From the IMG/VR virus record IMGVR_UViG_2740892427_000001: 64,000 bases of DNA; one strand, written 5' to 3'. Positions 30,526 to 56,597 of this stretch are shown one piece after another. Origin of the DNA: a virus. Taxonomy: Duplodnaviria; Heunggongvirae; Uroviricota; Caudoviricetes. Positions within the stretch are counted from its first letter, which is position 1, and each line of letters begins with the position of its first letter. A program made the position numbers and the translations under genes. The notes under the pieces were generated by a model that was not told the DNA's origin, searched no databases, and worked only from the letters and a program-made list of their open reading frames with translations.

Positions 30526-32865
30526 TTACTCTTCTACTGACTCGGTGGGGTTGTCTTTTGCTCTTCGGTCGTCGATTGCCTGCAAAGCCGCAATGATTTC
30601 AGCCAGTGGCTTCTCCCGATACATCTCGACGATCTGCGATTTGGTGTATTTCTTGTCACCAATTTCAACTCGCCCGCTGGCGTTCTTTGGCAGGTATCCT
30701 TCTTCCAGCATGTACTCGACGAGCGATTCGATAACGTCGAGGCCACGAGTAGGATCGAAGTAGAATTTCCAGGTGCATTTGCCATACGGTGGTGCAACTT
30801 TGTTTTTGATGCATTCTGCGCCTACGTCCTGGCCGATCTTCTCTTTACCATCCTTCATCACCGATGCACCAAGACGGATACGTACAGAAGCGTAGAACTT
30901 CGGTGAATCGCCGCCTGGTGACGTAGTAGGGTCGCCAAACATTACACCGATTTTTGTGCGAACCTGATTCAAGAAGATGATGCAGGCGTTGTATTTGCGT
31001 GCCCACAAAGCCAGAGTAGGGAAGTTCGCACTCGTCGCACGAGCCAGTGCCGTATTGTCGTTCATGTTTAGCTGATCTTTGTCTTTGGCAGTGCCTTCAG
31101 CCATCTTTTCGAACTTCTCGGCTTTGGAGTTCGGAACCATAGACGCAAGAGAGTCAGCCACGATACAGATAGGTGCTGATTCGGGGATAAGCTCTTCATC
31201 ACGAACCAATTTAAGTATTGTGCCGATCAACTCTACAGAGTCTTCGAAGGTATCTGGCTGCTTGTATACCCACTGACCGTCATCCTCATCTGCGTTCAGG
31301 CCATTGGCTACAGCCAGGCCAACGTCAAAACTGTTTTCATGATCGAGGAATACCGCCAGACCATCTTGTTTTTGAGCGGAGATCATCGCTGCTGTTGCAA
31401 GGAATGTGTTGTGGCTGATAATCCCGTTAGACCAGAAAGAGTGTGTTTCCGGCATCGCTACGTCGAACGTTGGTGCTTCACCTTCCTCAATAGCCACGAC
31501 TTCGTCGTAGAACAAGTTAGAGCCAATTACCGCTGCCAGTTGTGCAAACAGATGCTCGTTAAAACGATTCTTTCTGCCAATGAAGGAGACATAGATTTCT
31601 CGCAGTTTGTCTATTCCGACACGATCGCCGCGGCCAATAACGTGGTCTACCAGAGCGTAGTCTTCACGGGTGGTCTTGGTGAGCGACTCGTAGAGTGATT
31701 TCACTAAGCCGCTGATGTGCGGAACATAGCCTGAGTAAGTGCGGTCAAAACCAATGTCCCGTTTGGTTGCCACTGATAAACGTGCCGGAGATTCGAAACC
31801 AATCGTTGACAGAAAAAGGTCGTAATTAGAGCCACTGAATGACAGCCGGTAATATGTATTTTCATAACCCGCGACGTGTTTTTCAGAGATAGTTGACGTA
31901 ATCCCCAGATTCAGGAGCATGAGGCGAATTTGCTGTAGCAGCAGCCCACTCGCGCTCACAACCTCAATGCAGCGACCATCATTGACGTGGCATTCCAGCT
32001 CAAAGTAGCCGCGAAGGAATGCAATTTGAGCCTCGCTATTGGCGCGACGCACACTCAACGGAACCTGCTTGCCAGCATCTTTCTCATACTCCAGACCATA
32101 TTCTTTAAAAAGCAGCGAACGCACCTCTTTGCTAAACAGCACATGGTCTTCCGAGCCGTTATGTTTTCTCGTAACTGGCATCTTGTCTGATACCAGCGAA
32201 ATGAGGCGGTAGTACTCATCCTTGATGAAAGGATCTGTGTTAGAAAAATTCACTGAATTTTCAGAGGCCACGTATCCGTCAGCAATTAAATAGCCCATCA
32301 GTTTTGCGATATTGGCATCCAGGTGCTGATCGCCGAATTGATGTGTGCCAACCATTGAAGGAATCGTGTCGCCTACACTGATTTTTTCAGCATGTCGCCA
32401 GACGACATTACCTAAGTCGTCAACCACACGGATTGGGTGACGGAACGTAGCCTCGATATAACCGCCTGATGCCAGCTTAATACGCTTGAATTTGCGACGG
32501 TTGTTCCATGTCAGGTGTGAGGTCTTCTCTATCACGCCATTTTCATTGATGAGTCCAACGTTATGCTCTACATCGCGAGTAGTGCATGTCGCTTTGTACC
32601 CTTCAATCTCAAACAACTCTTTCACTGTTACCATTCCACGCTCCGTCAGCAGCATGGTGTCTGCGGTAACACATTTCCCCGCGCTTGGTGGCCCGAATAC
32701 TTCGACGATACGACCACATGGGAAGCCGCCATCGTAACGACCAGAAATAGCTTTGTTTAACGGTGGAAAGCCTGTATCAATCCAATGAGTTACTTTCTGA
32801 ATTTCGTCGTTGCTACCGATTTTCTTTTTCAGAGCAAGTGCCAGTGCGGATTTTCCTTTTGCCAT
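30526..32865 (-). CDS. recA: RecA/UvsX-like recombinase precursor containing an intein
   Basis: exteins GRIVEVFGPPSAGK / TFLATAAMISAQ...IIFLNQVRTKIGVMFGDP...KFYASVRIRLG match the RecA core; 422-aa insert in the P-loop. Confidence 0.9.
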   Translation of the reverse strand: MAKGKSALALALKKKIGSNDEIQKVTHWIDTGFPPLNKAISGRYDGGFPCGRIVEVFGPPSAGKCVTADTMLLTERGMVTVKELFEIEGYKATCTTRDVEHNVGLINENGVIEKTSHLTWNNRRKFKRIKLASGGYIEATFRHPIRVVDDLGNVVWRHAEKISVGDTIPSMVGTHQFGDQHLDANIAKLMGYLIADGYVASENSVNFSNTDPFIKDEYYRLISLVSDKMPVTRKHNGSEDHVLFSKEVRSLLFKEYGLEYEKDAGKQVPLSVRRANSEAQIAFLRGYFELECHVNDGRCIEVVSASGLLLQQIRLMLLNLGITSTISEKHVAGYENTYYRLSFSGSNYDLFLSTIGFESPARLSVATKRDIGFDRTYSGYVPHISGLVKSLYESLTKTTREDYALVDHVIGRGDRVGIDKLREIYVSFIGRKNRFNEHLFAQLAAVIGSNLFYDEVVAIEEGEAPTFDVAMPETHSFWSNGIISHNTFLATAAMISAQKQDGLAVFLDHENSFDVGLAVANGLNADEDDGQWVYKQPDTFEDSVELIGTILKLVRDEELIPESAPICIVADSLASMVPNSKAEKFEKMAEGTAKDKDQLNMNDNTALARATSANFPTLALWARKYNACIIFLNQVRTKIGVMFGDPTTSPGGDSPKFYASVRIRLGASVMKDGKEKIGQDVGAECIKNKVAPPYGKCTWKFYFDPTRGLDVIESLVEYMLEEGYLPKNASGRVEIGDKKYTKSQIVEMYREKPLAEIIAALQAIDDRRAKDNPTESVEE
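31408..32673 (-). mobile_element. intein with LAGLIDADG homing-endonuclease domain, inserted in the recA Walker A motif
   Basis: starts Cys (CVTADTMLL), TxxH block ATFRHP, LMGYLIADGYV and FLRGYFELECHV, ends ...NGIISHN followed by Thr+1. Confidence 0.8.
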
Positions 32866-32867
32866 GA

Positions 32868-33140
32868 TCAGGCTCCTTTTGTTTCGTTGATTCGTTTTAA
32901 AGCGGCGGATTCGTCGAATACAATCGCATCGTGGTTAAGGAGTCTGGATACACGAGCGAGGATTTTTACGACCTGCTCGCTGACTAATCCAAACTCGCGA
33001 TCTGTCGCTTTCATTCCGGCAGCGCCCAGAATTGACGGCAGTGCGATGACAGCGTACTCACCGTGATAAAAGACAATCTCTTTTGCCAGTTGGGTAGGGG
33101 TGGTTGTAGCGCCATTAATAATCGATTTAAGCATTAGCAA
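32868..33140 (-). CDS. hypothetical protein (90 aa)
   Basis: ORF between the FEN and recA genes. Confidence 0.45.
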   Translation of the reverse strand: MLMLKSIINGATTTPTQLAKEIVFYHGEYAVIALPSILGAAGMKATDREFGLVSEQVVKILARVSRLLNHDAIVFDESAALKRINETKGA

Positions 33141-34129
33141 TACCTTTCGAATGGAAGAACAAACACTTCAAGGTCTTCAAGGAACGAACGGAAATTCAGC
33201 TCGTAGCACAGTTGCTCGAATGCTTTCACGTCACGATTGCCTTTGATTGTTTCGATTTCGGTAGGCGGAAACTTCGTCTCAATCAGGTTCATTAGCGTGA
33301 TGTTTCTCTTGAACGCTTCGAGCATTCGACAGCCTGTTTTCTCGTTGAAGGCATTCTTCGCTAGTTTGTTGAAGGCGGTCTTATGGCGTCCTTTGTCAAC
33401 CACGATTGAGCCGTCGTTGATGCCGCGTACCATCGTTGCGACACTTCCCCATTCATGCAGCAGCTCTTTCGCACCGCCAGCACCAATGCCACCAACACCG
33501 CTAATGTTGTCCGATTTATCGCCTTGTAATGCTTTTGCTTCCAAAAATGCGCGAGGCGTGGCGAATCCTGTCAGCTCCGCAAATTGCTCAAAATTAACCT
33601 GCTTGTTTTTGGCGTCTTCACGCAGGCTTACCCAGCTTACGTTTTCACGAACTAACTGAAGCCAGTCGCTATCGCCTGTTAACAGATAGATGTGTTCAAC
33701 GGTTGGCTGCGGTGCCATGCGGGATACCAGCAGCCCGGCCAGATCATCCGCTTCTGCATCTTTTGCAATGAGTTGGGTAACTCCAAGCGCGGTCATCATT
33801 TTGAGGATGTATGGCTTCTGGATAGCAAAGCCTTCCTTCATCTTTTTCATATCAGGATCGTCGTCGCGATTTGCTTTGTAGTCCGGGTAAAAGTCGCGAC
33901 GCTTGTCACTAAATCCATCCCAAAGAATCATAGGTCGGGCATGGAGGATGGAGGCATAACGACGGACGTTCTTAACAAAGCCGAAAGCAGCCTGTACTTC
34001 CATTTCGCCGTTGTGCAATTTGTCAGATTGTTGGTGGTAATAACCCAGGCTATTGCCATCTACGAAGAGATAATTCACCGGTACATTCCTTCCAAAAAGT
34101 AAGGCGTCCGTAGAGGCCTTACTGGTCAC
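33134..34129 (-). CDS. 5'-3' exonuclease / flap endonuclease (T4 RNase H / T5 D15-like)
   Basis: N-terminal LFVDGNSLGYYHQ and downstream acidic motifs (LTGDSDWLQLV) typical of the FEN/53EXO family. Confidence 0.8.
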   Translation of the reverse strand: MTSKASTDALLFGRNVPVNYLFVDGNSLGYYHQQSDKLHNGEMEVQAAFGFVKNVRRYASILHARPMILWDGFSDKRRDFYPDYKANRDDDPDMKKMKEGFAIQKPYILKMMTALGVTQLIAKDAEADDLAGLLVSRMAPQPTVEHIYLLTGDSDWLQLVRENVSWVSLREDAKNKQVNFEQFAELTGFATPRAFLEAKALQGDKSDNISGVGGIGAGGAKELLHEWGSVATMVRGINDGSIVVDKGRHKTAFNKLAKNAFNEKTGCRMLEAFKRNITLMNLIETKFPPTEIETIKGNRDVKAFEQLCYELNFRSFLEDLEVFVLPFERYC

Positions 34130-34138: not shown

Positions 34139-35167
34139 TTACAGAGAGTCCAGCTCTCTCAGTAGGTCATCCAGACCTTCATCTTCCGTCGCAGATGCGG
34201 TTGCTACAGATGTCGCTGCGACTGCTTCAGACTCTTTGACTGATACGGCAACGGCAGCGGAACTTGCCTCTGGTTTAAATTCAGTTTCAACGGCACGGAG
34301 GATTTCTTCATCAACCAGACTGGTTGGTTCAGAAGCCGGTGTGTGCGCGGTTGCTACAGCCGTCGCTCCTTCTGTATGACCAGTGACAGAGCCAAATCCA
34401 GGTAGTGCCGCAGCCGATGTTTTCGCGGTTGAGGAAATTGCTGGTGCAGATGCTGCGGCAGTTGGTGCAGCGATGCCAATCAGACGACCCATAGTGCGAA
34501 CTGTCGACAGAAGACGAGTTTCATCAGCCTGATTTGCGTATGCGATCAGATCATGCTGGGTGTTCCAGAATTTATCTTCGATATCGCCTTTGTAGACTTT
34601 ACGCTTAGGCGAGACGTCATATTTGGTATCGCGACCAGAGCCAGTACGTTTAATCAGGAATGCGTAGCCTTCCTCTTTGCTCAGTGGATTGCCGATATCA
34701 TCAGCGATGTCTTCGGTGATTGCTTTGCAGATATCATCGAATACAGTAGACGGCAGCTCGATTAACTGGCATTTCTCAGCATCTGCGAAATCCTCACGAG
34801 CAGAAAGAATGCCGTTGACCAGGTAGCGAGGAGTGGCACGCATTTGACCGATGCGTTCTTCCATTGCTTTGTTACCCTTGTGACGAGCGCGACCTTCCAT
34901 CACCATTTCGCATAGCTGACAAGCGCGACCGTGAGTATGTTGCTCACAAATATAAGCGTTGGTTGCTTCTTTACCTTCCTCGTTCTGATACTTAACGTAG
35001 TGCATACCGAAAGTCTGGAAGAACTTACCGTTTGGGTCGTCTTTATTCGGGAAGATGCGGATATAGTTGACGCCGTCTTTTAAGCGAGTCAGATCAACGT
35101 TGTTGCCACGTTTGGCGGCAATGTCTTCACGAGTTTTGTTAAGCAAATCAAGTAATGTCTTAGACAT
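34139..35167 (-). CDS. single-stranded DNA-binding protein, T4 gp32-like
   Basis: Zn-ligand-like C..H..C..C cluster (ICEQHTHGRACQLC), Ala-rich linker, acidic C-terminal tail EDEGLDDLLRELDSL. Confidence 0.6.
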   Translation of the reverse strand: MSKTLLDLLNKTREDIAAKRGNNVDLTRLKDGVNYIRIFPNKDDPNGKFFQTFGMHYVKYQNEEGKEATNAYICEQHTHGRACQLCEMVMEGRARHKGNKAMEERIGQMRATPRYLVNGILSAREDFADAEKCQLIELPSTVFDDICKAITEDIADDIGNPLSKEEGYAFLIKRTGSGRDTKYDVSPKRKVYKGDIEDKFWNTQHDLIAYANQADETRLLSTVRTMGRLIGIAAPTAAASAPAISSTAKTSAAALPGFGSVTGHTEGATAVATAHTPASEPTSLVDEEILRAVETEFKPEASSAAVAVSVKESEAVAATSVATASATEDEGLDDLLRELDSL

Positions 35168-35284: not shown

Positions 35285-35716
35285 TCAACGGGGAGTAATA
35301 AAGCGTTCAGAGCCTAATCGCTCTAATTCAACGATGGCCATCTTTGACGCCTGAACGATCATGTCTCGGCGATGCGAAAAGGCGGCGACAGCATGTTTGT
35401 ATATGTCTGCGATGTGCCGTGCTTCATCCAACTTCTGCCGTTTAGACAGATACTGTGGGTTTGTTTTAACCTTAGCGTCCAGTACAGACTCGTTGAACTT
35501 AATGCCGTTCATACTCAAGTTCTTACGCTCTGTGTCGTATAGCTTTGCTTCAACAGCTTCAAGGTTAAGTTTTGCCTCTGCGACATCTCGATCTGCCTGC
35601 GCTAGTTTTGACCCATACTCCATTAAAAGCCGTGGCTGTTTACGCCATACTTCCTCAAGGTTGTCGCGGTCGAACTCCAGATCGGCCATGATTTTAGAAA
35701 AAATATCAGTGTTCAC
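35285..35716 (-). CDS. hypothetical protein (143 aa); possible recombination mediator by position next to SSB/RecA
   Basis: ORF; coiled-coil-like; context only. Confidence 0.45.
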   Translation of the reverse strand: MNTDIFSKIMADLEFDRDNLEEVWRKQPRLLMEYGSKLAQADRDVAEAKLNLEAVEAKLYDTERKNLSMNGIKFNESVLDAKVKTNPQYLSKRQKLDEARHIADIYKHAVAAFSHRRDMIVQASKMAIVELERLGSERFITPR

Positions 35717-36199: not shown

Positions 36200-36221
36200 A
36201 AGGCGGCATTAGCCGCCTTTT
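36200..36221 (+). terminator. rho-independent terminator AAGGCGGCattaGCCGCCTTTT
   Basis: GC stem plus T-run. Confidence 0.65.
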
Positions 36222-36255
36222 GCAGAAACTGTCCAACTATCTTCAAAGGAAAACT

Positions 36256-36819
36256 ATGGCGCTTTATAACTTCACTCTGACGCTCTCAGGCGTATCGTAT
36301 GAGACGGAAGGACTGGAAGACGCGCTGTACCAAAACGGCTGTGACGATGCGCTAATTTGCGCATATGGAAACTCCGTCTATGTAGAATTTGACCGCGAAG
36401 CACAATCACTTGATGCAGCTATCGCATCTGCGGTCGACAATATTGAATCAGCCGGTATCGGTGCAATTGTTGAATCCGTCGACTCGGCTCTTGTGGGCTT
36501 AAGCGATATCGCGGAACTGACAGACCTGTCTCGCCAGGCAGTGGCGTTGCTCAAAGACGGTAAGCGCGGAAGCGGCGACTTCCCTTGCCCTGTACAACGC
36601 ATAAAAGGCCAGTCTCCTCTCTGGGATTGGGCTGATGTGGCTGAATGGCTCATGAATAACGGACGACTTAAAGAGGGCGATCAAATTGTCCAAAATGCCC
36701 GAACTTTGAGTAAATGGAATCTGGCGCTTCGAAACAGCGTCTCGAAAGATTTCAACGAAATAGAGCAAATTGCGGAGAAACTGATTAAACGCCGCAAAGA
36801 TATTGCGAAATGCGCATAA
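36256..36819 (+). CDS. hypothetical protein with internal HTH-like segment (188 aa)
   Basis: start set to ATG 36256 (AAGGAAAACT-ATG); LTDLSRQAVALLKDGKRG helix-turn-helix-like. Confidence 0.5.
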   Translation: MALYNFTLTLSGVSYETEGLEDALYQNGCDDALICAYGNSVYVEFDREAQSLDAAIASAVDNIESAGIGAIVESVDSALVGLSDIAELTDLSRQAVALLKDGKRGSGDFPCPVQRIKGQSPLWDWADVAEWLMNNGRLKEGDQIVQNARTLSKWNLALRNSVSKDFNEIEQIAEKLIKRRKDIAKCA

Positions 36820-36820
36820 T

Positions 36821-36844
36821 GATGCCCGCCAATTGGCGGGCATC
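36821..36844 (+). terminator. stem-loop GATGCCCGCCaattGGCGGGCATC
   Basis: 10-bp perfect stem immediately after the stop codon. Confidence 0.55.
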
Positions 36845-36935
36845 TGTTCTCTGTAAAGGTGTCTGGCATCGTCTGGTTCGTTAACGTTTACTAAACCAAT
36901 GGTGACAAAAATTAGTTATCTTTGAAAAATAAAGG

Positions 36936-36964
36936 TTGCATGAAAAGAAGGGGTATGCGTTAAT
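36936..36964 (+). promoter_or_regulatory. cspA-like promoter (TTGCAT-17 bp-GTTAAT) with AT-rich upstream element, giving a ~180-nt 5' UTR
   Basis: hexamers at 36936-36941 and 36959-36964; resembles the host cspA promoter arrangement from memory. Confidence 0.4.
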
Positions 36965-37148
36965 AGCATCGTTGGTTTGCAAGACAGACCTTATGTAAGC
37001 AGTTTTAGTAAAGCAGTCTCAGTTCAGTGTTATCTTCTGATTTCCCTTCTTCGTGAGTCTCCTCCTTAAGTGCCTAAGTAAGTCCCAATCTATACAGATC
37101 AAATTCTCGCCGCACTATGTGGCTCACAAAATTAAGAAGGTAATATCT

Positions 37149-37364
37149 ATGTCTAATAAAATGACTGGTTTAGTAAAATGGTTTAACTCTGATAAAGGCT
37201 TTGGCTTTATTTCTCCTGCTGATGGCAGTAAAGATGTTTTTGTACATTTTTCGGCAATTCAGAGTAATAATTTCCGCACTTTGGAAGAAGGCCAGCAGGT
37301 CGAATTCTCTATCGAGAATGGTGCTAAAGGCCCAGCAGCAGCAAATGTCGTTGCTCTAAGCTGA
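37149..37364 (+). CDS. cspA: cold-shock protein, CspA family
   Basis: [23 protein letters not shown]...[10 protein letters not shown]...[20 protein letters not shown]: RNP1/RNP2 cold-shock-domain motifs; start set to internal ATG 37149. Confidence 0.9.
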
Positions 37365-37667: not shown

Positions 37668-40600
37668 TTACTTATTTATTGTCTCCGCGATATCAGCCAG
37701 AATGGCCTCCAGTCGCTCTCCTTCTTCCGGTCGGAAGTACAGGATATTCGGGTTAAATCCGTAGAAGACGGTTGCATCAAGCTCTGGGAAGTACTCCTTA
37801 CGACCAATCAGATCTGATGGTTTACTCTTATTGTTAAATAGTGCGGTTGAACGACTACCACACGTCAAAATGTAGGTTGGTCGTACAAGATTAATTTCTT
37901 CCCGCATAAAGTCTGTGAACTGGCCTATCTCGTCTTTGGTATAGTCTTTCTCTTTGTCCTTAACCTTCTTACAAACACCCGTGACATAAAGATCGCCCAT
38001 GCGCAGATCTCCAACTGTCAGTAGTTTTGCCTTAAAGTCGTCGTATCCGTTCTCCATGAAGTAGCCGGTACGAGCGTCATTGCCGTTCGCATTGTCCAGA
38101 ATGATCATGATTTTGGGTTTAATACCAATAGTCGGGCGTATCAACTCCTCACCCAAGCCCATTTCAGCCGCCATACGTGTCATGAGTACGTTGATTTCGG
38201 CAGAACGCTTAGGATTCATTTCGAACGGACGTGATGCTTTAACAGCGTCAATGATGAGATTGCCCATCAGCTCAGCCTGGTCGCGCAGTCGTTCAGGATC
38301 AGTTGCTGGCAGACTGCCTGGCTCAATTGACGCAAAAGCCCCTACTTTATGAAGCGACTCGCGTACACGACTGTTACATGCACGCTTCTCGACCGCTTCA
38401 TCGAATTGTGCCACTGACTCGAATTTGCCACCAACTTTCTCACGCGCACGCATAATTGCCTGACAACCATTTTCAGAACAGCCTTTCACAGCAGAGAATG
38501 GCGCATACAGTGCCTGACTGCCGTCTTCGAGTGTGCGGATCTCAATTCGGTTAGATGACACATTAACGTCTGGTGGCAATACGCGAATGCCATAGGTCAG
38601 CGCATCCTTCACCAGCCCCTGATGCTTATCCTCGCCCAGAATGGTGAGCGCAGCTGCGAAGAACTCAGCAGGGTAGTGCGTCTTTAGCCACATAGACTGA
38701 TAACTGATTAAAGAATAAGCAACACTGTGTGATTTGTTGAAGGCATATCCACCGAACTTCTCAAAGGCGTCCCATATTTCTTGGGCTTTTTCCTTACTGA
38801 GACCTTCTTGTTCAGAGACGATCTCCACGTAGTCTATGCCGTCACTAATAGCCTCGCTGTAGCTTCTACGCTTACCGTCTGAGCAATCCAGTTTTGCGTG
38901 TTTGTGAACCTCTACAGTACCTCCATTTTTGAGTGACAGTGTCACCCAGCCTGCTTGTGCTCGTTCTACAAAATCGCTGCCGATCGCTTTCATCTTATCC
39001 ATGTTCTTTTTACCGATAGCGGAACGCAGAGCGTCTGCTTCGGCCATAGAGAACCCGGCAAGTACTCGGGAACTTTGCATGATTTGTTCCTGATAGAGCA
39101 AAACACCATTAGTCTCCCGGGTGACTTCCTCAAGACGCGGATGAATTGAATGTGGAGCCATGAAGCCTTTGGCCACGGAGACATAGTCGTCCAACATGCC
39201 GGATTGGATCGGGCCTGGTCGGAAGAGTGCGGTCGTGGCGACAACGGTCTTGAAGCTCATTGGCTCGATGCCACCGCCCAGATCTTTAAGCAACTTACGC
39301 ATGGGGCCGGACTCCAGCTGGAATACGCCCTGCGTGTACCCTGCAGCGAACCCATCCAGAACCTTGCGATCGTCCAGTGGGATAGCGTCGAGATTGATGT
39401 CTTCCCCGGTACTCTCTTTGATGTAGCGTTTCGCGCTATCCAGAAGATCGAGCGTTGCCAGGCCAAGCACGTCCAGCTTAATTAGGCCCATAGCCTCGCA
39501 GTAACGCTTGTCAAATGCGATACAACGCGCGTCACCACGGCGCTCAACCGGTGTACGTTCTGTCAGAGGAACACCTGCTACGATCATCCCTGCCGCATGT
39601 CTACCAAAGCCACGCATAAGGCTTTGTAACTTGCAGGCTGCATTGAATGCATCAGGATATTTTGTTGCGTATTTGTCGAGACTTGCCAGTTGTTCGCGCA
39701 GCTCTTCCAATGGAAGGCTATCATCCTCGACGTTCTTCAGTTCTTTTGATACCGCCATATCTGCGGACTCCACACCATAAATACGAGCGGTGTCACGTAG
39801 TGCAGATGCCGCGCCCAGATAGGTGAAGTTCGGAATGCCTGCAACGTAATCTTCGCCGTAGCGTTCATTCAGATACTCGATCACCTCATGGCGACGTGCC
39901 TGGCTGAAGTCCAAGTCCGCATCCGGCAAGTCGAGACGCTCAGGGTTGATGAAACGCTCAAACAGAAGACCGTGACGGATTGGGTCGACGTTGGTTATGC
40001 CTATGCACCACGCCACCAGAGAACCGGCAGAGGAACCACGACCAGGCCCGACAGGAATGCCAGTTTCACGGCTGTGATTCATCAGATCGCGTACCATCAG
40101 GAAGTAACCACAGAATCCCAGGCGAGTCAGCGTGTCCATTTCGTACTTTAGCCGCTCAACATAAACCCTGTTCTCAGAAGCAGGTGGTGTGTATCCAAAC
40201 TCTTTTGTGGTAAGACGTTTACGCAGCCCTGCAACAGCCAGTTTCATCAGCGTTGCAGGTTCGTCGTCTGCCATCTTGGGCAGTGCTGGTGGCAATTCAT
40301 GCCAGCGCCATGTGCAGGCATCGATAATGGAGTCCTGCGTTGTTGAGGCCATTGCAGCTGTTACCGGCACATCCATGCGAACGGAGAAGGCTTTAAGCGC
40401 CTCAAGGAGATGGCGACGACCATTGATGGCGTTATCTCGCTGGTGGGGGATACGCAGACGATGCGGCTGGTCGATTTTTATGTTGTTCGTAACCATGTGC
40501 GCAATGTCTTTAATGTCTGCATCGTCGATCGATTCGTAATAAGCGGGATAGAACGCCACTGGCTCTATTTTCAATGCGCTGGCTACTTTCATCGCTCGGA

Positions 40601-41174
40601 CGTTAATCTGGTCGTAGAATGGGGTAGGGTGCGGATAAACCACGCTATAGAAGTTGTCTTTCCCGCCCGCTGTAATCAGTGAGCTTATGATTTTTGCAAA
40701 ATCGTTGCGTTGGAACACGCTACCGATGTCGGAAGTGAGCAGGATGATGTTGCCTTTGGCATATGTAGAAACCAACTGTTCGAGCGAGAGACGCGGTACA
40801 AAGTAGAACTGTTCTCGTGTGTTGGCCACCGTCATTAGTTCGCAGATGTCGCGATATCCTTTCTCATTTTTAATTAGAGCGGTAAACGAGTAGTTACGTC
40901 CTCGCTCCAATGATTCCATACATCCCTTAGACTCTTTAGCAAGTTTAGCCCGGTGCTCGTATGTGGGATCATCAACGATGTTTAGTTTCACACCACAAAT
41001 AACCGCCATGTCGTCACCAGCGGCACGTTGTAGTGGAATAACGCTCGCAATATTCATGCTATCTGCTGAAATTACAGCGGTGTAGCCAGCTTCTCTGGCA
41101 ATCTTCACCGCGTTTTCTGCTTTTAGAGCCGACTCCCCAAGTGAGAAGTCAGTTCGAACCATCAGTGCTTTCAT
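37668..41174 (-). CDS. dnaE: DNA polymerase III alpha-type catalytic subunit (DnaE family)
   Basis: 1168 aa; N-terminal PHP-domain-like region, central GPGRGSSAGSLVAWCIGIT and PDxD motifs; length close to bacterial DnaE. Confidence 0.9.
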   Translation of the reverse strand: MKALMVRTDFSLGESALKAENAVKIAREAGYTAVISADSMNIASVIPLQRAAGDDMAVICGVKLNIVDDPTYEHRAKLAKESKGCMESLERGRNYSFTALIKNEKGYRDICELMTVANTREQFYFVPRLSLEQLVSTYAKGNIILLTSDIGSVFQRNDFAKIISSLITAGGKDNFYSVVYPHPTPFYDQINVRAMKVASALKIEPVAFYPAYYESIDDADIKDIAHMVTNNIKIDQPHRLRIPHQRDNAINGRRHLLEALKAFSVRMDVPVTAAMASTTQDSIIDACTWRWHELPPALPKMADDEPATLMKLAVAGLRKRLTTKEFGYTPPASENRVYVERLKYEMDTLTRLGFCGYFLMVRDLMNHSRETGIPVGPGRGSSAGSLVAWCIGITNVDPIRHGLLFERFINPERLDLPDADLDFSQARRHEVIEYLNERYGEDYVAGIPNFTYLGAASALRDTARIYGVESADMAVSKELKNVEDDSLPLEELREQLASLDKYATKYPDAFNAACKLQSLMRGFGRHAAGMIVAGVPLTERTPVERRGDARCIAFDKRYCEAMGLIKLDVLGLATLDLLDSAKRYIKESTGEDINLDAIPLDDRKVLDGFAAGYTQGVFQLESGPMRKLLKDLGGGIEPMSFKTVVATTALFRPGPIQSGMLDDYVSVAKGFMAPHSIHPRLEEVTRETNGVLLYQEQIMQSSRVLAGFSMAEADALRSAIGKKNMDKMKAIGSDFVERAQAGWVTLSLKNGGTVEVHKHAKLDCSDGKRRSYSEAISDGIDYVEIVSEQEGLSKEKAQEIWDAFEKFGGYAFNKSHSVAYSLISYQSMWLKTHYPAEFFAAALTILGEDKHQGLVKDALTYGIRVLPPDVNVSSNRIEIRTLEDGSQALYAPFSAVKGCSENGCQAIMRAREKVGGKFESVAQFDEAVEKRACNSRVRESLHKVGAFASIEPGSLPATDPERLRDQAELMGNLIIDAVKASRPFEMNPKRSAEINVLMTRMAAEMGLGEELIRPTIGIKPKIMIILDNANGNDARTGYFMENGYDDFKAKLLTVGDLRMGDLYVTGVCKKVKDKEKDYTKDEIGQFTDFMREEINLVRPTYILTCGSRSTALFNNKSKPSDLIGRKEYFPELDATVFYGFNPNILYFRPEEGERLEAILADIAETINK

Positions 41175-41358
41175 GTGTTTTTACCTTTATGGTTTTTTTG
41201 ATTTTGTCATTGGGGAAGCCTACGAACTTCCCATACATCGAAATCGCAACTTCTTTTGCTGATTGGTGACAATCGGTCTTGTCTGGACATACCAGACAAG
41301 CCTTACCAGTTTCAGAAGCAGCGATAAGAGAGCCGAAACATCCTTTACGCACGATCAA
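41149..41358 (-). CDS. small Cys-containing hypothetical protein (69 aa), TTG start
   Basis: ORF overlapping the dnaE start; weak. Confidence 0.2.
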   Translation of the reverse strand: MIVRKGCFGSLIAASETGKACLVCPDKTDCHQSAKEVAISMYGKFVGFPNDKIKKTIKVKTHESTDGSN

Positions 41359-42590
41359 CCAAATATTTTTTGAACAACTTCACGAGCCGCTTGTGCAGAA
41401 GCTGAAGGGAGTTTGTTAATGAAAGAACGCTCAATACCTGTCACAAAGTCGCCTCGCATCATTCCAATCTTGGCCGACAACAAAAGTTCACGAGGGCCAA
41501 TTGGCTGACTGATAAGGTGTTCTTCGTATCCATCGCGAACGATACCGGCAAACTTAACCATCTTTTCTGCGTATTCATCCACGATACCGGCATTTATCAA
41601 CATGTTGATCTCTGCCTCTTTGCTCATGTATTTCACATTCGAAACGATGCCAAAACGCGAAAAGTTCGCGGCGTTCTGGATGTTTGTACCCTGGTACAAG
41701 CCGGTTTCATCACCAGATCCGTTCGTGTTGCCAGTGCCAATGAAAGCAAACCGTTCATGCGGAGTAATGCGACGCCATTCTGGAGTCGCCTCTTTGATGA
41801 CCAACGCTTCACCTTCCAGCACTGGCTGATACACGCCAAGAATCTGTGGAAACGCAAAGTCGTATTCATCCGCGAGGTAAACCCAGCCATGCTTCATTGC
41901 GAGCGCAAGCAAGCCAGGCTCGAAATACGTAGAGCCATCACGCGCCAGAATTTGCCCCGTAACATGTGCCTCTTCCATTGATGCTGTATGTTGGGCACGG
42001 ATCAACGGACGATTGAGCAAAGCACATAGTTGTGTAGGCAATGACGATTTGCCTGTTCCTGCATGACCCCACAAATAGCCAGGTATGCCAAGTTCAAGCA
42101 TCATGAAAATGTCTTTGATCAGTTCGAAGTCGCCATATACGTAGCCCTTCTTCACTTCTGGAACGAACTCTGGAAACGGCGTATTGACGTTGACGCTAAC
42201 CATGAGCGGCGTCCCACGTTTTGTTCCGAGTTCTTTCACCGTTACATTTAGCAGTTCGTGAGCTGCGACCAGATCTGTCTTGTACTCAACTGTGCCTGTG
42301 TAGCCTGGGCTACTGGTCACGCCAGATGATTTGGCCATTTCGCTTTTTTGCTCGGCACGTTTAGCTTGAATTGCATCAAGTGCCTTTTTCGATAGCGTTG
42401 GCTCATCTGGAAACTGTGTTGTGTACATTTTCAGTACGGTGTCAGGATCGGCATCTTTTACTGACTCAGGAATGCCCTCGCAATTACCATTGGCTACATG
42501 GGACTTAAAATAGTGAAATGATTTTCCGCACCACTTGCAAACAAGGTAATCAGAAGGATTTTTTTCATTTTGCAGTGCAGTAGTAGTCAT
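41355..42590 (-). CDS. AAA+ ATPase, MoxR/CobS-like
   Basis: Walker A GHAGTGKSS, Walker B VYLADEYDF; N-terminal Cys/His cluster. Confidence 0.7.
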   Translation of the reverse strand: MTTTALQNEKNPSDYLVCKWCGKSFHYFKSHVANGNCEGIPESVKDADPDTVLKMYTTQFPDEPTLSKKALDAIQAKRAEQKSEMAKSSGVTSSPGYTGTVEYKTDLVAAHELLNVTVKELGTKRGTPLMVSVNVNTPFPEFVPEVKKGYVYGDFELIKDIFMMLELGIPGYLWGHAGTGKSSLPTQLCALLNRPLIRAQHTASMEEAHVTGQILARDGSTYFEPGLLALAMKHGWVYLADEYDFAFPQILGVYQPVLEGEALVIKEATPEWRRITPHERFAFIGTGNTNGSGDETGLYQGTNIQNAANFSRFGIVSNVKYMSKEAEINMLINAGIVDEYAEKMVKFAGIVRDGYEEHLISQPIGPRELLLSAKIGMMRGDFVTGIERSFINKLPSASAQAAREVVQKIFG

Positions 42591-42685
42591 GCGTTTTTCC
42601 TTTGTTTTCTAATGAGCGTTCAACTTCTTATATAAATATATCATTATCTATCGTAAGTGGTTACTTATCGTTAAGGCTGTTTTGT

Positions 42686-44794
42686 TCACTTTAAAATGAT
42701 ACGAGATAGTTCAGTAACTACAGATGAACCAAGACTATCAACGCTCGTTACCAGGGCATGATTTGAGTAAAATCTCTCCGGTGCGTCAGTCATGATGCCA
42801 ATTGCCATCAAATCAATGTCAGTCTGCGTTTCAATTTGCTTCGCAACCGAACGCAAATGAGCGTCAAAACCTCTCCCAACAGCCCACGGCTCGCCATCGC
42901 TCAGAACAAGCATGATCTTCCTGTCCTCCATGCGACCGGAAAATAACGATGCAAGGCTGGCTATGCTTTCACCATCCACGTTATTAAGAAGTGGGAATGT
43001 GTAGCCTACGCACCCCATACGTGAGCGAACTTCGCGAGAATTTACCTTTTCATTCCAATTTTTGATGATAGGTAGCATTAAAGATTCAAAGCGAGAGAAC
43101 TCATACTTGACAGCCTTAAGTTCTCCTGCCGCCATATGACTACCAAATGTAGTGAAGCCGGTGATAATGTTGGGAACATTTATTCGATCAAGGGCATCGG
43201 CGATGGTATATGCACTTGCAAGAGCCAATTGTATCGTTATACCCCTCATTGAACCTGATAAATCAATCACTTGTTGAACACAGGCGTTAACGGCTTTAGA
43301 TTCTTCTTTTTTACGAAACACGCGATCATCATTCATTGCTAATCTGTAGATACTAGAACCATGAATGCGCCCCCGACGCTGGCCCGGTATAAACTGAACT
43401 CTGTTTCTGCTTGCTATTGCTCGCTCCAGGTCTTTTGCCAGCGTCGACGAAACACCTGACGAAAGATGCTTTTCAATATATTTGTCGAAGAGCTGGTTGC
43501 CTTCAGGAACGATGCGATAGCGGCTGATTGGACATCCTCCTAAATCAATATCGGAGAATGTTTTAATAAGCCGTTTGATATGGGCTTCTGCCTGATCAAT
43601 CGAGCCGATGAAGTCGTATGAGCGATTGTATGGCCTGTATTCGCTTTTCGAGCTTTCTGTTAACTCGCTTTTAATCGTTTCGGATAGAGCATCTTCTGTC
43701 ATGCCTCCGACTTCATCTTCTATGCTATCCAGCTCCTCTAAAGCCTCTTCCAGACTCATTTTTGACGGAGTTGGGATATCTGAAGAGCCGTCTTCTGTCG
43801 TTTTTCTTTTTTCGTGGTCAGCGGTTAATGATTCTGACGCCGCGTTATCAGAAGCATCAGAATCTGATACCTCTTTATCATTTTCTGTATCATCGAATAT
43901 TGTTTCTGATGATTCAGAATTATCTGAATCATCACTGTTGTTATTATCATGTTTGTGCTTACTATGTGATTCTGATTTGATAGATTTGTGATTATCTAAC
44001 AATGAAGGTGTCTCATGATCTTCGTTGTCTTCATTGTTTTCTCCAGAGGCATCCGTCTGGTCAGCGTCAGAAGGATCGGAAGTTTTTCCCGGAGCTGACT
44101 CCTTACCTTTGCTTTCACTTTCAGTGTCTTTGAGGATCTTAGCTATGGTCGCAGCCACCTTTACACAATCCTCGGTGCAAGACATGTTACGCACGGCCAC
44201 ATCGATACCATGTTCTTTTAATAATGAAATTGGTTTCTCAATGACAGGCCAGTATTCATCCATGAAATCTACGAACGGTGCTTGGCCATCCCAGGCTCTT
44301 ACAACCGGACAGAGAAAGAAGTTTAGAAAAAGCGCGCGCTGATCTTTGCCACAATAAGCAATAGCCTCTGAAGCCTTTGGTTTAAAGACTTTTTCGATTA
44401 TAAGGCGCTGAGTTGCCATCAGATTACGTCTTGTTCCGTTAAAGACCTGACCCATTTTTCGCTCGATGAACACGTCTTCTAAGGCATTCCATAGCGACCA
44501 GGAAGGAACGCGTCCTTTTTCTCTCATTTTGTTGGACACACGAATATCGGTAAACAAAATGTGAGCAACCTCATGATCGAGAAATCCGCGCACAGCATTC
44601 ATCAATGCCGGTGTTGCGTTATCCGGGATTGATGGGATGTTTACGAGAATTGGCTCTCCATCATCGTTATAGCGTACATAAGCGTCGTCCCCTCGTTCTG
44701 CAACAGGGATGTTTTTACCTGAAAGGAGAGCGACTACTCGTTTTACACTGTCACGGAAGTCCTGAACCTCTTTGATGGAACGTTTTTTAGACAT
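42686..44794 (-). CDS. vWA-domain protein (CobT-like partner) with long acidic Ser/Asp-rich insert
   Basis: C-terminal MIDAS motif VIDLSGSM; ~170-aa low-complexity acidic region in the middle. Confidence 0.65.
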   Translation of the reverse strand: MSKKRSIKEVQDFRDSVKRVVALLSGKNIPVAERGDDAYVRYNDDGEPILVNIPSIPDNATPALMNAVRGFLDHEVAHILFTDIRVSNKMREKGRVPSWSLWNALEDVFIERKMGQVFNGTRRNLMATQRLIIEKVFKPKASEAIAYCGKDQRALFLNFFLCPVVRAWDGQAPFVDFMDEYWPVIEKPISLLKEHGIDVAVRNMSCTEDCVKVAATIAKILKDTESESKGKESAPGKTSDPSDADQTDASGENNEDNEDHETPSLLDNHKSIKSESHSKHKHDNNNSDDSDNSESSETIFDDTENDKEVSDSDASDNAASESLTADHEKRKTTEDGSSDIPTPSKMSLEEALEELDSIEDEVGGMTEDALSETIKSELTESSKSEYRPYNRSYDFIGSIDQAEAHIKRLIKTFSDIDLGGCPISRYRIVPEGNQLFDKYIEKHLSSGVSSTLAKDLERAIASRNRVQFIPGQRRGRIHGSSIYRLAMNDDRVFRKKEESKAVNACVQQVIDLSGSMRGITIQLALASAYTIADALDRINVPNIITGFTTFGSHMAAGELKAVKYEFSRFESLMLPIIKNWNEKVNSREVRSRMGCVGYTFPLLNNVDGESIASLASLFSGRMEDRKIMLVLSDGEPWAVGRGFDAHLRSVAKQIETQTDIDLMAIGIMTDAPERFYSNHALVTSVDSLGSSVVTELSRIILK

Positions 44795-46976: not shown

Positions 46977-47051
46977 CGTTGTTTTTTGAATTTTAAGGGA
47001 AACGGGAGTGAGTTTGGTGGGAATAAAAACGGCTCCTGTGAGCCGTTAAAA

Positions 47052-47865: not shown

Positions 47866-47952
47866 TGGCGGAGAGTAATGGAATCGAACCATCATCGCTT
47901 GCGCAATGGGACGGTTTTCAAGACCGCTTGAGCACCATGCTCCCTACTCTCC
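47866..47952 (-). tRNA. tRNA-Ser (anticodon UGA), class II with long variable arm, encoded CCA
   Basis: manual fold: acceptor GGAGAGT/ACTCTCC, anticodon loop CUUGAAA, T-loop GGTTCGATTCC. Confidence 0.7.
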
Positions 47953-48050
47953 AGCTATTGTGATGGTCGGTGCTGAACTCCGACACAGGGTTGTAGCAAG
48001 CCCCGCAAAGCGCGCACTACTGTAGTTGCGGCACATCAGCCTGTGCATTC

Positions 48051-48133
48051 ATCACAACGGTAAGATCACTACCTTTCGACCAGTCATTGTGCACATGAAC
48101 GACGATTAACCGTAATGATCTTATCGTTGTGTT
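48051..48133 (-). other. imperfect long stem-loop in tRNA spacer
   Basis: arms atcacaacggtaagatcact / aatgatcttatcgttgtg. Confidence 0.35.
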
Positions 48134-48180
48134 GTGAAGCCAGATGCTTATCTTCTGGTTGCTTCAAAGAGCTGCACTTC

Positions 48181-48271
48181 CTCACAACGGTAAGAGCACT
48201 GGTCTGACTCTATCGATTTACGGGCTTGTGGGTCAGTATCGCCGATTCGCCCAATGCTCTTACCTGTTGTG
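48181..48271 (-). other. imperfect long stem-loop immediately 3' of tRNA-Thr
   Basis: arms ctcacaacggtaagagcactgg / ccaatgctcttacctgttgtg. Confidence 0.4.
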
Positions 48272-48272
48272 T

Positions 48273-48348
48273 TGGTGCCGGTTAACGGGATCGAACCGCT
48301 GACATCCTGCTTACAAGGCAGACGCTCTACCAACTGAGCTAAACCGGC
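48273..48348 (-). tRNA. tRNA-Thr (anticodon UGU), encoded CCA
   Basis: GCCGGTTTAGCTCAGTTGGTAGAGC...CUUGUAA...GGTTCGATCCCGTTAACCGGCACCA. Confidence 0.8.
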
Positions 48349-48352
48349 AATT

Positions 48353-48439
48353 TGGTGGGGAGTGATGGAGTCGAACCACCCGAGTCGCAATGACAGTAGA
48401 TTTACAGTCTACCCCGCTGCCCCTACGGACTAACTCCCC
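48353..48439 (-). tRNA. tRNA-Tyr (anticodon GUA), long variable arm, encoded CCA
   Basis: anticodon arm GTAGACTGTAAATCTAC, T-loop GGTTCGACTCC, acceptor GGGGAGT/ACTCCCC. Confidence 0.8.
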
Positions 48440-48444
48440 TAAAT

Positions 48445-48519
48445 TGGCGATGGTGGGTGGATTCGAACCACCGACCAGTTGGTTAACAGCCAACTGCTCT
48501 ACCGCTGAGCTACACCATC
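48445..48519 (-). tRNA. tRNA-Asn (anticodon GUU), encoded CCA
   Basis: GATGGTGTAGCTCAGCGGTAGAGC...GTTGGCTGTTAACCAAC...GGTTCGAATCCACC. Confidence 0.8.
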
Positions 48520-49963: not shown

Positions 49964-50126
49964 CCTTAATCTCCTTCAGGGTGTTGGTTATTTCTACAAT
50001 GCGATAAATACGACCGCGTCTTTCTATAACACCGCTTTTAATGTAGTCATTGATGCAACTGGACATCACCACAATACCTATGAAAAAACCAACTGCTAAA
50101 AATGCAATCATCCAGCCGAGCATCAT
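49947..50126 (-). CDS. small membrane peptide (59 aa)
   Basis: MMLGWMIAFLAVGFFIGIVVM...RGRIYRIVEIT; ATGA coupling to the ligase stop. Confidence 0.3.
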   Translation of the reverse strand: MMLGWMIAFLAVGFFIGIVVMSSCINDYIKSGVIERRGRIYRIVEITNTLKEIKDDRIK

Positions 50127-51445
50127 TCTTTATCTCCGATTCGATCTTCTGTATCGCGTAAGCAACGCGGCCATTTCAGTCGGGGGTGGCGTAAGCTGCC
50201 ATCCGGTGTTTTCTCGTGACAATGAACCTCAACAATACGACCACGGTACTTCTCTTTGTTGTTCCAGATCTCGTCCAGATATTTATGCTTAATACCGCTC
50301 GCACGAACGATGACGCCGTTTTCAAGACGAATAACAATTTTTCCAAGCGTGTTGGCAAAACCAGAGTCCGGATCGCCCGGCTCAAAATCGATAATTTCAC
50401 CATCTTCTGAATCTTCGTCTTTTAACTTCCACCAGCTGCGGGTACGTTTAAACTCGTAAACAGAGTTCGGATCTTTGCCCATCTCCCCTTCTTCGTTATC
50501 GTCCAGGCGTTTCATGAAGCGTTCGATGAAGTCTTCGTGGCTATGGATGATATAGAACGGATGTAGGTGAATGTCTTGCGCGTAGTCTTCACTGCGATCG
50601 TTTTTGAACAACGCCACGAGAATAGCCAGGCGCTCTTTCAGCTTCATACCTGTCTTTGCATACTCTTTGGATTTAGCCTGTGCCCGCCATTCCGGTAGGA
50701 AAAAGTCGAAAACATGATAAATAGCGCCAATTGCCTGCACGTTCTTTTTGCGCAATGCAGATACGGACTGGTTAAATGAACCGGCTGTTCCTTCACCATC
50801 GAAGAAGATGTGTTTGTGGCCTGAAAGTTTGCCTAATTCGAGCATTGCTGGCTTTAGGTGATCGAGAGACGTGATTGGATTACCAGTACGAGAAAGGAAG
50901 TTAACCTCTTCCTCGTCAACAATAACCTCGCAAATTACTCGCAAACCATCGAGCTTAAGACTGCCAATCATCGGCCATTTTGCTTTAGGATTTGGCTTGA
51001 AGGGGTATTTGTCGCCTTTTTCTTTATACGGTGACGCCAGCTGCACCTCGAATTTCGGAATGGGATTTTCAAAAACCTTGTTGCATAGGCTAATCCCAAC
51101 ACCTGCTTTCGGGTCTTTTAAGAGGAAACGACGGAACACGTCCTGCCCATCGGCGCACATTGACGCCACGATAGACTCAACAGCTGCTATTGCTGCGTTC
51201 CCCGTCAGCTCGCGAGAGGCCAGCTTATTCAGTACATCAATGGCTTTTTCGTCACTTGGGACGGACTCACTAAGCGGCTCTGCCACTTTGTATTTCTTTA
51301 CCCCAAAACGGATGAAAGGGTTGAGCATCAATGAAACCATGCTTTGTTCAAAGTCATCCATGTTGGCCAATGCCTCTTTTTTTGCATTGGTTCCCATAGC
51401 TTTCATTTCGTCCAGCTTATGCTTAAGTGCGATCAACTTTTTCAT
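50123..51445 (-). CDS. ATP-dependent DNA ligase
   Basis: adenylation motif I MIGSLKLDGLRVI (KxDG) and downstream nucleotidyltransferase motifs. Confidence 0.85.
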   Translation of the reverse strand: MKKLIALKHKLDEMKAMGTNAKKEALANMDDFEQSMVSLMLNPFIRFGVKKYKVAEPLSESVPSDEKAIDVLNKLASRELTGNAAIAAVESIVASMCADGQDVFRRFLLKDPKAGVGISLCNKVFENPIPKFEVQLASPYKEKGDKYPFKPNPKAKWPMIGSLKLDGLRVICEVIVDEEEVNFLSRTGNPITSLDHLKPAMLELGKLSGHKHIFFDGEGTAGSFNQSVSALRKKNVQAIGAIYHVFDFFLPEWRAQAKSKEYAKTGMKLKERLAILVALFKNDRSEDYAQDIHLHPFYIIHSHEDFIERFMKRLDDNEEGEMGKDPNSVYEFKRTRSWWKLKDEDSEDGEIIDFEPGDPDSGFANTLGKIVIRLENGVIVRASGIKHKYLDEIWNNKEKYRGRIVEVHCHEKTPDGSLRHPRLKWPRCLRDTEDRIGDKE

Positions 51446-54019: not shown

Positions 54020-54100
54020 GTGTTTTTCTTTTGTGGTTTGGCAAAAGAAAAGTTGTTTCACCAATGAATCAAGCGTGGAGGTGTTCTCCACGCTTATTTT

Positions 54101-56399: not shown

Positions 56400-56597
56400 A
56401 AAAACCAACCCAACCTAGTTTTTAGTCTCATGGTATGCAACCTTAAGATCTACTTCAAAACAGCTGCACGCCAGACGGTTGTAACATTGTTAAGTGTAAC
56501 AAATTATTGTAGATTACTCAGGCACAGAATAGCATCTACAACTTAAGAAACGTCCAGAAATAAACAATGTACCAATCACGTAGAAAGGGAATTAAGA

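Follow-up and report, generated by a model that had tools for sequence, protein, structure and literature searches.

The phage-plasmids SSU5/pHCM2, pKpn, pSLy3 and pMT1 have been grouped as the "SSU5 supergroup" (PMC7969092; Pfeifer et al. 2021), and phage-plasmids of the SSU5 kind can carry resistance genes (PMC9600943). The Escherichia phage Cyrano is an SSU5-like siphovirus with 81% identity to SSU5 over 65% coverage; its plasmid form is present at ~5.5 copies per cell (quantitative PCR), and it is inducible with ciprofloxacin and forms virions seen by transmission electron microscopy (PMC9928086). For some strains of Y. pestis and S. enterica, Timinskas et al. (2014) reported an additional C-family DNA polymerase, "DnaEX", in which the OB and C-terminal domains are replaced by an archaeal-type uracil-DNA glycosylase (UDG) (PMC3919608); their gene is the pMT1/pHCM2 gene. 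Here, we analyzed a 64,000-nt stretch of a Caudoviricetes virus record (IMGVR_UViG_2740892427_000001), whose whole length is called the window below, and its polymerase of the same PHP–Pol3–(HhH)2–UDG architecture, DnaE-UDG. The element very probably has two replication systems, a RepA–iteron plasmid mode and a lytic replisome of its own around DnaE-UDG, for which no clamp is encoded. The element, its gene content and the architecture of DnaE-UDG are already present in the literature or in database annotation; what is described here beyond the one sentence of PMC3919608 are the residue losses, the wider phage distribution and the pairing with a tail-less epsilon.

Sequence comparison identified the window as some 64 kb of an SSU5-supergroup phage-plasmid that is all but identical to Cyrano, i.e., pLF82 of adherent-invasive E. 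coli LF82 (OV696614 / NC_011917). About 57 kb of it aligned with Cyrano at 98–99% nucleotide identity, and gene order and content are the same; gaps or replacements, few in number, were located at positions 23618–24867, 46990–47080, 47967–48443, 56403–57321 and beyond 61754 (tail fiber). In megablast searches, the window dnaE was 99.9% identical to that of the E. coli plasmid pEC7518-111k, 99.3% to those of Cyrano and pLF82 and 85.5% to that of Salmonella phage SSU5, the protein identity to SSU5 being 91% in the C-terminal domain. It also matched 781 plasmid records, 753 of them non-mobilizable, from Klebsiella, Escherichia, Enterobacter, Yersinia and Salmonella. The window is thus of one kind with the SSU5/pHCM2 supergroup, whose members are plasmid prophages of ~100–120 kb that are non-mobilizable and reside in Enterobacterales; within it, the window belongs to the E. 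coli (Cyrano/pLF82-like) lineage. The initial annotation of the window had likened the element to SSU5/pHCM2-like phage-plasmids, and rightly so: comparison of nucleotide and protein sequences with phage-plasmid references gave Cyrano, SSU5 and hundreds of ~110-kb plasmids as best matches. The Cyrano record annotates DnaE, epsilon, gp32-like single-stranded DNA-binding protein (SSB), UvsY, RecA, SbcCD, RuvC, ligase and helicase, and further primase, RepA, ParA and KacT. Virion-related genes within the window are a tail fiber gene (61112..63847) and lysis genes, the remaining virion module being seen in references such as Cyrano. Both plasmid maintenance and virion production have been demonstrated for Cyrano (PMC9928086). 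In the related E. coli plasmid NZ_AP027904.1, an IS100 element is inserted in dnaE, and in pEC7518-111k, several copies of IS1203 lie within genes for structural and metabolic proteins; because of these insertions, many family members are probably defective as phages yet persist as plasmids.

DnaE-UDG (37668..41174, minus strand) is a C-family polymerase of 1168 aa, identified by Pfam, NCBIfam, PHROG and PDB matches. Pfam delineated a PHP domain (aa 6–175, E 7e-13), DNA_pol3_alpha (aa 309–571, E 1e-73), DNA_pol3_finger (aa 574–740, E 3e-46) and HHH_6 (aa 862–951, E 3e-16), so that the (HhH)2 or beta-binding domain is kept; the family profile matched the HhH region of Pol III alpha at 1e-50. 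PHROG 405 "DNA polymerase" spans the protein end to end, and the closest Pol III alpha structures were those of Thermus (2HPI, 1.6e-127) and E. coli (5FKU, 6e-116). The catalytic residues D418 and D420 are conserved in all 46 aligned family members and D555 in 43 of them. Membership in the DnaE family was checked by profile search, where the superfamily model TIGR00594 was passed with 653.6 bits against a cut-off of 434.35, while the equivalog cut-offs for DnaE1, DnaE2 and DnaE3 were all missed (e.g., 699.6 against 1002 for DnaE1, PRK05673). By these profiles, the polymerase is a member of the DnaE superfamily and not an equivalog. Over window aa 4–952, its identity to E. coli DnaE amounts to 31%, and its PDB score against the E. 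coli enzyme (392 bits) is no better than those against Thermus (430) or Mycobacterium (402) DnaE, so that a recent capture from the host can be dismissed.

The window and the core of E. coli Pol III have the Asp triad, fingers and (HhH)2 domain of the polymerase in common, and in both the DEDDh proofreader is a protein of its own; DnaE-UDG differs from Pol III alpha in its low identity and in having neither an OB nor a tau-binding domain, nor a recognizable QADMF motif at the canonical position. The label "bacterial-type DnaE" therefore holds as to family, yet the polymerase is not a typical one, given the 31% identity, the missing His-x-His and the UDG-like tail. It comes from a phage-specific lineage in which the PHP domain is degenerate and the OB and tau-binding domains are replaced by a UDG-like one.

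The degenerate PHP domain (aa 6–175; 40650..41159, minus strand), matched only weakly by the Pfam model, has no His-x-His metal-binding motif. The DnaE-UDG N-terminus reads MKALMVRTDFSLGES (MVRTDFS), with M-V-R-T at the H-x-H position, as against HLRVHSDYS in E. coli, and H-x-H is present in only two of the 46 aligned sequences (P0132 and P0142). Since this metal site is lost, DnaE-UDG probably lacks proofreading of its own. Between the fingers and HhH domains, at aa ~743–789 (38808..38948, minus strand), lies a 47-aa insertion, GWVTLSLKNGGTVEVHKHAKLDCSDGKRRSYSEAISDGIDYVEIVSEQ, confined to the enteric SSU5 group: it was found in the window protein and in P0008, whereas the remaining 44 sequences of the family lack it, as does E. 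coli DnaE. The insertion site is close to where relatives of ~390 aa, apparently split C-terminal halves, begin.

The C-terminal part (aa ~990–1168; 37671..38207, minus strand) is a family-4 UDG-like domain in the place of the OB and tau-binding domains. Alignments of bacterial alpha subunits (PDB, NCBIfam) to the window protein end at aa ~950, and the ~35 residues between the HhH and UDG-like domains leave room for neither an OB fold nor a tau-binding domain. The domain matched NCBIfam TIGR00758 (E 4.9e-7), and the family profile matched the UDGs of S. tokodaii (4ZBX, 4e-22), T. maritima (TM0511, 1e-18) and T. thermophilus (UDGA, 5e-17) in the PDB. An AlphaFold2 (AF2) model of aa 785–1168 (pLDDT 90.8) had 4ZBX as its best Foldseek match (E 6e-11, TM 0.81) over the whole 192-residue target. 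The catalytic motifs are altered. Motif A, GE(A/G)PG in family-4 UDGs, reads DNANG in the window (family consensus D-x-P-N), and motif B, whose canonical HP(S/A) includes the catalytic His, reads FNPN; the His position is occupied by Asn, Ser or Thr in 45 of the 46 sequences and by His in none. Neither of the domain's two Cys stands at a ligand position of the [4Fe-4S] cluster, which family-4 UDGs bind with four. Our best guess is that the UDG-like domain would act as a non-catalytic DNA-binding module replacing the OB domain. Many distant metagenomic relatives (P0020, P0025, P0029, P0037 and others) keep the N-terminal C-x2-C of the Fe–S cluster, and many also keep the Cys at the position of its last ligand, while the SSU5 group has none left; the domain seems to be at differing stages of degeneration across lineages. 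A UDG-like region is also mentioned in the GenBank note for Rhizobium phage RHEph10.

The separate DEDDh exonuclease of the initial annotation was confirmed at 10601..11155, where it is encoded on the minus strand (the plus strand contains seven stops). This epsilon-like 3'-5' exonuclease of 184 aa has complete Exo motifs (D9/E11, D99, H154/D159) and matched Pfam RNase_T (E 4e-22) and PHROG 192 "DNA polymerase exonuclease subunit" (E 6e-51). Its best PDB match was E. coli epsilon (3e-11), and it is 31% identical to residues 11–176 of E. coli DnaQ; the NCBIfam epsilon equivalog cut-offs were not reached (72 against 196). The protein stops a few residues past the exonuclease domain, whereas E. 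coli epsilon, with 243 aa, continues into a C-terminal alpha-binding tail and carries the QTSMAF clamp motif, both absent here. In E. coli, this tail tethers epsilon to the PHP domain of alpha. The 31 phage genomes with DnaE-UDG also carry the epsilon-like gene, which was otherwise met only in a few weak outliers; it lies ~25–27 kb from dnaE in each of the 31 (~26 kb in the window). Within the window gene, a patch of ~300 nt (~10750..11050) is ~60% identical to Cyrano, with flanks at 96–100%, and lowers the amino acid identity to 83.8%; Klebsiella phage GArcari is closer (87.8%). The patch looks like a small mosaic created by recombination within a conserved gene.

The absence of clamp and clamp-loader genes, which the initial annotation had noted for the window, was borne out by profile scans and tblastn and extended to two complete references, Cyrano (108,379 bp) and pEC7518-111k (111,696 bp). 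In the larger open reading frames (ORFs) inside and outside the window, many short ones being left out, Pfam, PHROG and NCBIfam found no clamp or loader family. Searched by tblastn against the window, full Cyrano and full pEC7518, E. coli DnaN and DnaX-gamma and T4 gp45, gp44 and gp62 produced nothing below E 0.9, and T4 gp45 and gp44/62 nothing below E 2.8; T4 gp46, used as positive control, was detected at E 2e-15. The Cyrano and pEC7518 annotations contain no clamp or loader either. Of the E. coli Pol III components, theta, beta, tau, gamma, delta and delta' are all without an encoded counterpart in the element. Kazlauskas and Venclovas came to a matching result in their survey: viral genomes with a C-family polymerase were generally without clamps, homologs being found in only one such phage (PMC3201878).

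To see the distribution of this polymerase, the UDG-like C-terminal domain was searched among 1.8 billion proteins. An exhaustive search of representatives returned 140 clusters at 50% identity, with the domain either at the C-terminus of proteins of 1080–1140 aa or in ~390-aa proteins resembling split C-terminal halves; a word-indexed protein search with the same domain had retrieved six fragments. The domain is present in 32 deposited phage records, comprising 12 SSU5-like enteric phages, 10 Rhizobium phages (RHEph10 group), 6 Pseudomonas phages (nickie group), 2 Stenotrophomonas phages, 1 Xanthomonas phage and 1 fragment. The Xanthomonas phage, JGB6, was excluded from alignments, its dnaE and neighboring genes being split into many short coding sequences (CDSs) by apparent assembly frameshifts. 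Complete genomes with DnaE-UDG are ~105–120 kb in size, except for one of 84 kb. The gene order cobT–cobS–(0–3 small genes)–dnaE–...–5'-3' exonuclease–RecA–...–SbcD–SbcC is kept in Pseudomonas phage nickie, Rhizobium phage RHEph10 and Stenotrophomonas phage BUCTxx99. Because this order is shared across phages of three host genera, the replisome that had been called a hybrid of bacterial and T4-like parts is an old, coherent module of a siphophage lineage; the components named are present, but their combination is neither recent nor ad hoc.

The remaining replication genes of the window complete this picture. A DnaB-like replicative helicase (54101..55441, minus strand) was recognized by Pfam DnaB_C (E 4e-13) and, below the cut-off, by NCBIfam phage_DnaB (E 5e-14). 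Directly upstream of it, a conserved all-alpha protein (55485..56234, minus strand) is a candidate helicase loader or initiator rather than a clamp. The DnaG-like Toprim primase (52838..54091, minus strand) matched Pfam DNAG_N and Toprim_2 weakly and an NCBIfam dnaG domain at E 3e-9, and is annotated as DNA primase in Cyrano and pEC7518. On the same strand are an ATP-dependent DNA ligase (50123..51445; DNA_ligase_A_M, E 4e-13), a T4 gp32-like SSB with an acidic C-terminal tail (34139..35167; gp32, E 1.7e-66), a 5'-3' exonuclease/flap endonuclease (33134..34129; 5_3_exonuc_N, E 2e-24, and 5_3_exonuc, E 5e-12) and a type 1 RNase H (7264..7908; RNase_H, E 1e-45). A UvsY-like recombination mediator (35285..35716, minus strand) is a weak assignment, made from PHROG 231 (E 1.9e-4) and the Cyrano annotation only. 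The RecA ORF (30526..32865, minus strand; 779 aa) contains an intein with a LAGLIDADG endonuclease, with Pfam matches to RecA (E 3e-36, in two stretches), LAGLIDADG_3 (E 2e-17) and Intein_splicing (E 2e-11). In pEC7518, this ORF is labeled "LAGLIDADG family homing endonuclease" by PGAP; the RecA proteins of nickie and RHEph10 have ~370 aa and are hence intein-free. SbcC-like (20348..22264) and SbcD-like (22494..23675) proteins, both encoded on the minus strand (20348..23675), were identified by Pfam AAA_23, SMC_N, SbcC_Walker_B and Metallophos. The SbcC-like protein is the one matched by T4 gp46 in the control search, while tblastn with T4 gp47 found no match in the SbcD-like protein, whose gp47-type designation derives from Metallophos and the pairing with SbcC.

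The plasmid-mode replicon (25694..27780, plus strand) consists of a Rep_3 RepA (26244..27299; Pfam Rep3_N/Rep3_C) and iterons of ~21 bp with the core (A/T)TCCACTATAGAGAG, whose repeat families D1–D7 occupy both sides of repA. The nearest plasmid, pEC7518, is typed as IncFIB. A ParA partition ATPase (57673..58341, minus strand; Pfam AAA_31, MipZ, CbiA) and a TacA/GNAT toxin–antitoxin pair (58621..59458, plus strand; TacA1, E 9e-26, and a GNAT acetyltransferase) are encoded elsewhere in the window. Pfam thus agreed with the initial annotation on the gp32-like SSB, flap endonuclease and ATP-dependent ligase, as well as on RepA, ParA and TacAT. The helicase and primase are DnaB/DnaG-like and not specifically T4-like. 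The likeness to T4 comprises the gp32-family SSB, the weak UvsY-like mediator, the gp46-like SbcC, a flap endonuclease of the RNase H/FEN type and, outside the window, a UvsW-like helicase (Cyrano CYRAN_118). In contrast, the PolB (gp43), gp45 clamp and gp44/62 loader of T4 are all lacking from the element, in which the recombinase is a bacterial-type RecA with an intein instead of UvsX. Among the polymerases of the window and Cyrano, only the C-family enzyme was found, and none of family B.

We propose that, in the plasmid (lysogenic) state, the iteron-flanked Rep_3 RepA would recruit the host replisome, with ParA and the toxin–antitoxin pairs stabilizing the plasmid. In lytic growth, the element would use its own replisome with DnaE-UDG as the core. 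Since the PHP metal site is lost, proofreading would be supplied in trans by the short DEDDh epsilon-like exonuclease. The rest of the fork would be formed by the DnaB-like helicase with its candidate all-alpha loader, the DnaG-like primase and the gp32-like SSB; Okazaki fragments would be matured by the flap endonuclease, RNase H and ligase, and RecA, the UvsY-like protein, SbcCD and RuvC would serve recombination-dependent replication. The UDG-like domain might keep the polymerase on DNA as a non-catalytic binding module, possibly assisted by the host beta clamp via the retained HhH "beta-binding" domain. A lytic rather than a maintenance role for this module is suggested by several observations: NZ_AP027904.1 persists as a plasmid with its dnaE disrupted, RepA and the iterons form a separate replicon, related phages carry the same module, and the genes given as expressed in Cyrano lysogeny do not include dnaE (PMC9928086).

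Some points weigh against this proposal. The lytic replicase role, the binding of epsilon to DnaE-UDG and the binding of DNA by the UDG-like domain are all proposed from sequence. The window epsilon does not have the tail that tethers its E. coli counterpart to alpha, so that its pairing with DnaE-UDG likewise has the status of a proposal. With Asn in the place of the catalytic His of motif B, the UDG-like domain may still have glycosylase activity. Finally, the negative clamp result comes from sequence profiles, and proteins of 260, 269 and 247 aa as well as small ORFs match no family.

A competing explanation is that DnaE-UDG docks on the host beta clamp, loaded by the host, through its HhH domain and a motif resembling QADMF, which we consider rather unlikely, though the least so of the alternatives. 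The linker between the HhH and UDG-like domains contains the motif R-x-[KR]-D-Q-x-E-L-[LM]-P-G-[LIV] (aa 962–973; 38256..38291, minus strand), RLRDQAELMGNL in the window, whose D-Q-x-E-L-[LM] part (QAELM) lies ~20 aa past the HhH domain, near the QADMF site of E. coli alpha, and resembles the clamp-binding consensus QL[SD]LF. Few stretches outside the catalytic core are as well conserved (R962 in 42, Q966 in 41 and L969 in 37 of 46 sequences), across phages of different proteobacterial hosts, and an element without a clamp of its own has kept the HHH_6 domain. However, the AF2 model places the motif in a confident helix (model residues 176–189, pLDDT ~90) rather than in a flexible peptide, and in the MAFFT alignment it pairs with HRAALMNSL of E. 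coli alpha, AELMGNL facing AALMNSL (~898–904) upstream of QADMF, so that it may be a plain conserved DnaE helix. There is no further Q-motif downstream in DnaE-UDG, and the tau-binding domain is absent. The motif is therefore ambiguous, either clamp-binding-like or a structural helix after the HhH domain, and its assignment as a clamp-binding motif was downgraded to this alternative. No earlier case is known to us in which a phage-encoded polymerase works with host beta. Less probable still is a divergent processivity factor or clamp encoded by the element itself and hidden among ORFs without a family match. In or near the module are proteins of 220–270 aa without Pfam or NCBIfam matches and with PHROGs of unknown function (51980..52762, 9633..10442, 19616..20358), and highly divergent viral clamps have been found only by sensitive methods (Kazlauskas and Venclovas, PMC3201878). 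Yet of the three such proteins checked, the most widely conserved, and the sole one that most phages of the wider family share, is all-alpha; the 260-aa protein is limited to the enteric group, and the 269-aa protein is conserved only in its C-terminal part and only in Pseudomonas phages. The negative tblastn searches with known clamps and loaders and the general lack of clamps in viral genomes with C-family polymerases also speak against it.

It is improbable, more so than a hidden clamp, that DnaE-UDG is an auxiliary polymerase for repair, translesion synthesis or plasmid maintenance, similar to plasmid-borne DnaE2, and not the lytic replicase. Timinskas et al. spoke of an "additional polymerase", most plasmid-borne C-family polymerases are DnaE2 (PMC3919608), and the element is SOS-inducible, as the ciprofloxacin response indicates. 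Nevertheless, DnaE1 models scored 699.6 bits against 415 for DnaE2, and the gene lies within the conserved helicase–primase–SSB–ligase–nuclease module and co-occurs with a dedicated proofreader. DnaE-UDG is, moreover, the sole annotated polymerase in relatives of ~105–120 kb such as nickie and RHEph10, and the plasmid with the IS100-disrupted dnaE is still maintained, contrary to a maintenance function. The initial annotation had named an unrelated phage group or a chromosomal island as what would speak against an SSU5-like element; this was checked and is not the case. A chromosomal island or unrelated phage with a captured host dnaE can practically be dismissed in view of the matches to Cyrano, SSU5 and hundreds of ~110-kb plasmids and the distance from host DnaE, whose score does not exceed those of Thermus and Mycobacterium, and nothing was found in its favor.

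Directly upstream of dnaE are a CobS-like AAA+ (MoxR-type) ATPase and a CobT/VWA protein (41355..44794, minus strand; Pfam AAA_5, CobT_C, CobT). CobS-like genes were found in 494 phage records, mostly of T4-like cyanophages. We considered CobS/CobT as a replication accessory or loader analog and rejected this, as no specific link was seen and the genes occur mostly in cyanophages with a clamp system of their own; the "cobalamin/porphyrin biosynthesis" labels given to phage CobS/CobT are doubtful. Directly downstream of dnaE, on the opposite strand (36220..37364, plus), are a cold-shock gene (cspG in pEC7518) and a HicA/HicB-type pair (Cyrano annotation), which are morons wedged into the replication module. 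The overlapping ORFs 19855..20358 and 19616..20026 (minus strand) are represented in Cyrano by one CDS of 744 nt (CYRAN_67), located between SbcC and RuvC; the 743-nt span of 19616..20358 suggests a frameshift or sequencing error, and an IS1203 insertion lies nearby in pEC7518. A thymidylate synthase (13178..14281, minus strand) matched Pfam Thymidylat_synt of the ThyA family (E 2e-78, two stretches), and its Cyrano label "ThyX" is probably a mis-annotation. ARAGORN predicted a tRNA cluster (47866..48519, minus strand) of Ser-tga, Thr-tgt, Tyr-gta and Asn-gtt. Three tRNAs (Asn, Thr, Ser) are annotated in Cyrano, the Tyr tRNA being extra in the window, which differs from Cyrano at 47967–48443. 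Segment 56403..57321 aligned with neither Cyrano nor pEC7518. It contains an ORF (56598..57275, plus strand) whose product of 225 aa matched no Pfam family and includes a signal peptide of lipoprotein type (…LLLAGCAQ…). The site, occupied by a P-loop NTPase in pEC7518, appears to be a variable cargo slot beside ParA.

The mechanistic question posed by these elements is how a ~110-kb genome is replicated by a C-family polymerase with no encoded clamp or loader and neither an OB nor a tau-binding domain. A C-family polymerase is normally almost non-processive without beta, and we know of no C-family replicase that works without a sliding clamp. As a tentative possibility, DnaE-UDG and the tail-less epsilon might form a self-sufficient, clamp-independent C-family replicase, the dead UDG fold serving as a processivity module or as a sensor of template uracil. 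A UDG has been proposed as a processivity module for the PolA of SPO1 and T5 and is known in this role for vaccinia D4 (PMC3201878). In SPO1/T5 PolA and in the vaccinia D4 (UDG)–A20–E9 complex, as here, a UDG-fold module is attached to the replicative polymerase of a clamp-less genome. There, however, the UDG belongs to a family-A or family-B polymerase, either at its N-terminus or as a subunit of its own, whereas the window has it at the C-terminus of a family-C enzyme, in the place of the OB and C-terminal domains. Since SSU5-type phage-plasmids occur frequently in clinical isolates of E. coli, Klebsiella, Salmonella and Yersinia, it is worth knowing whether their lytic replication depends on host beta. 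If the tentative reading is true, a phage polymerase would have been uncoupled from the host clamp loader and tau network, and hundreds of clinical enterobacterial plasmids would carry a C-family replicase without a sliding clamp.

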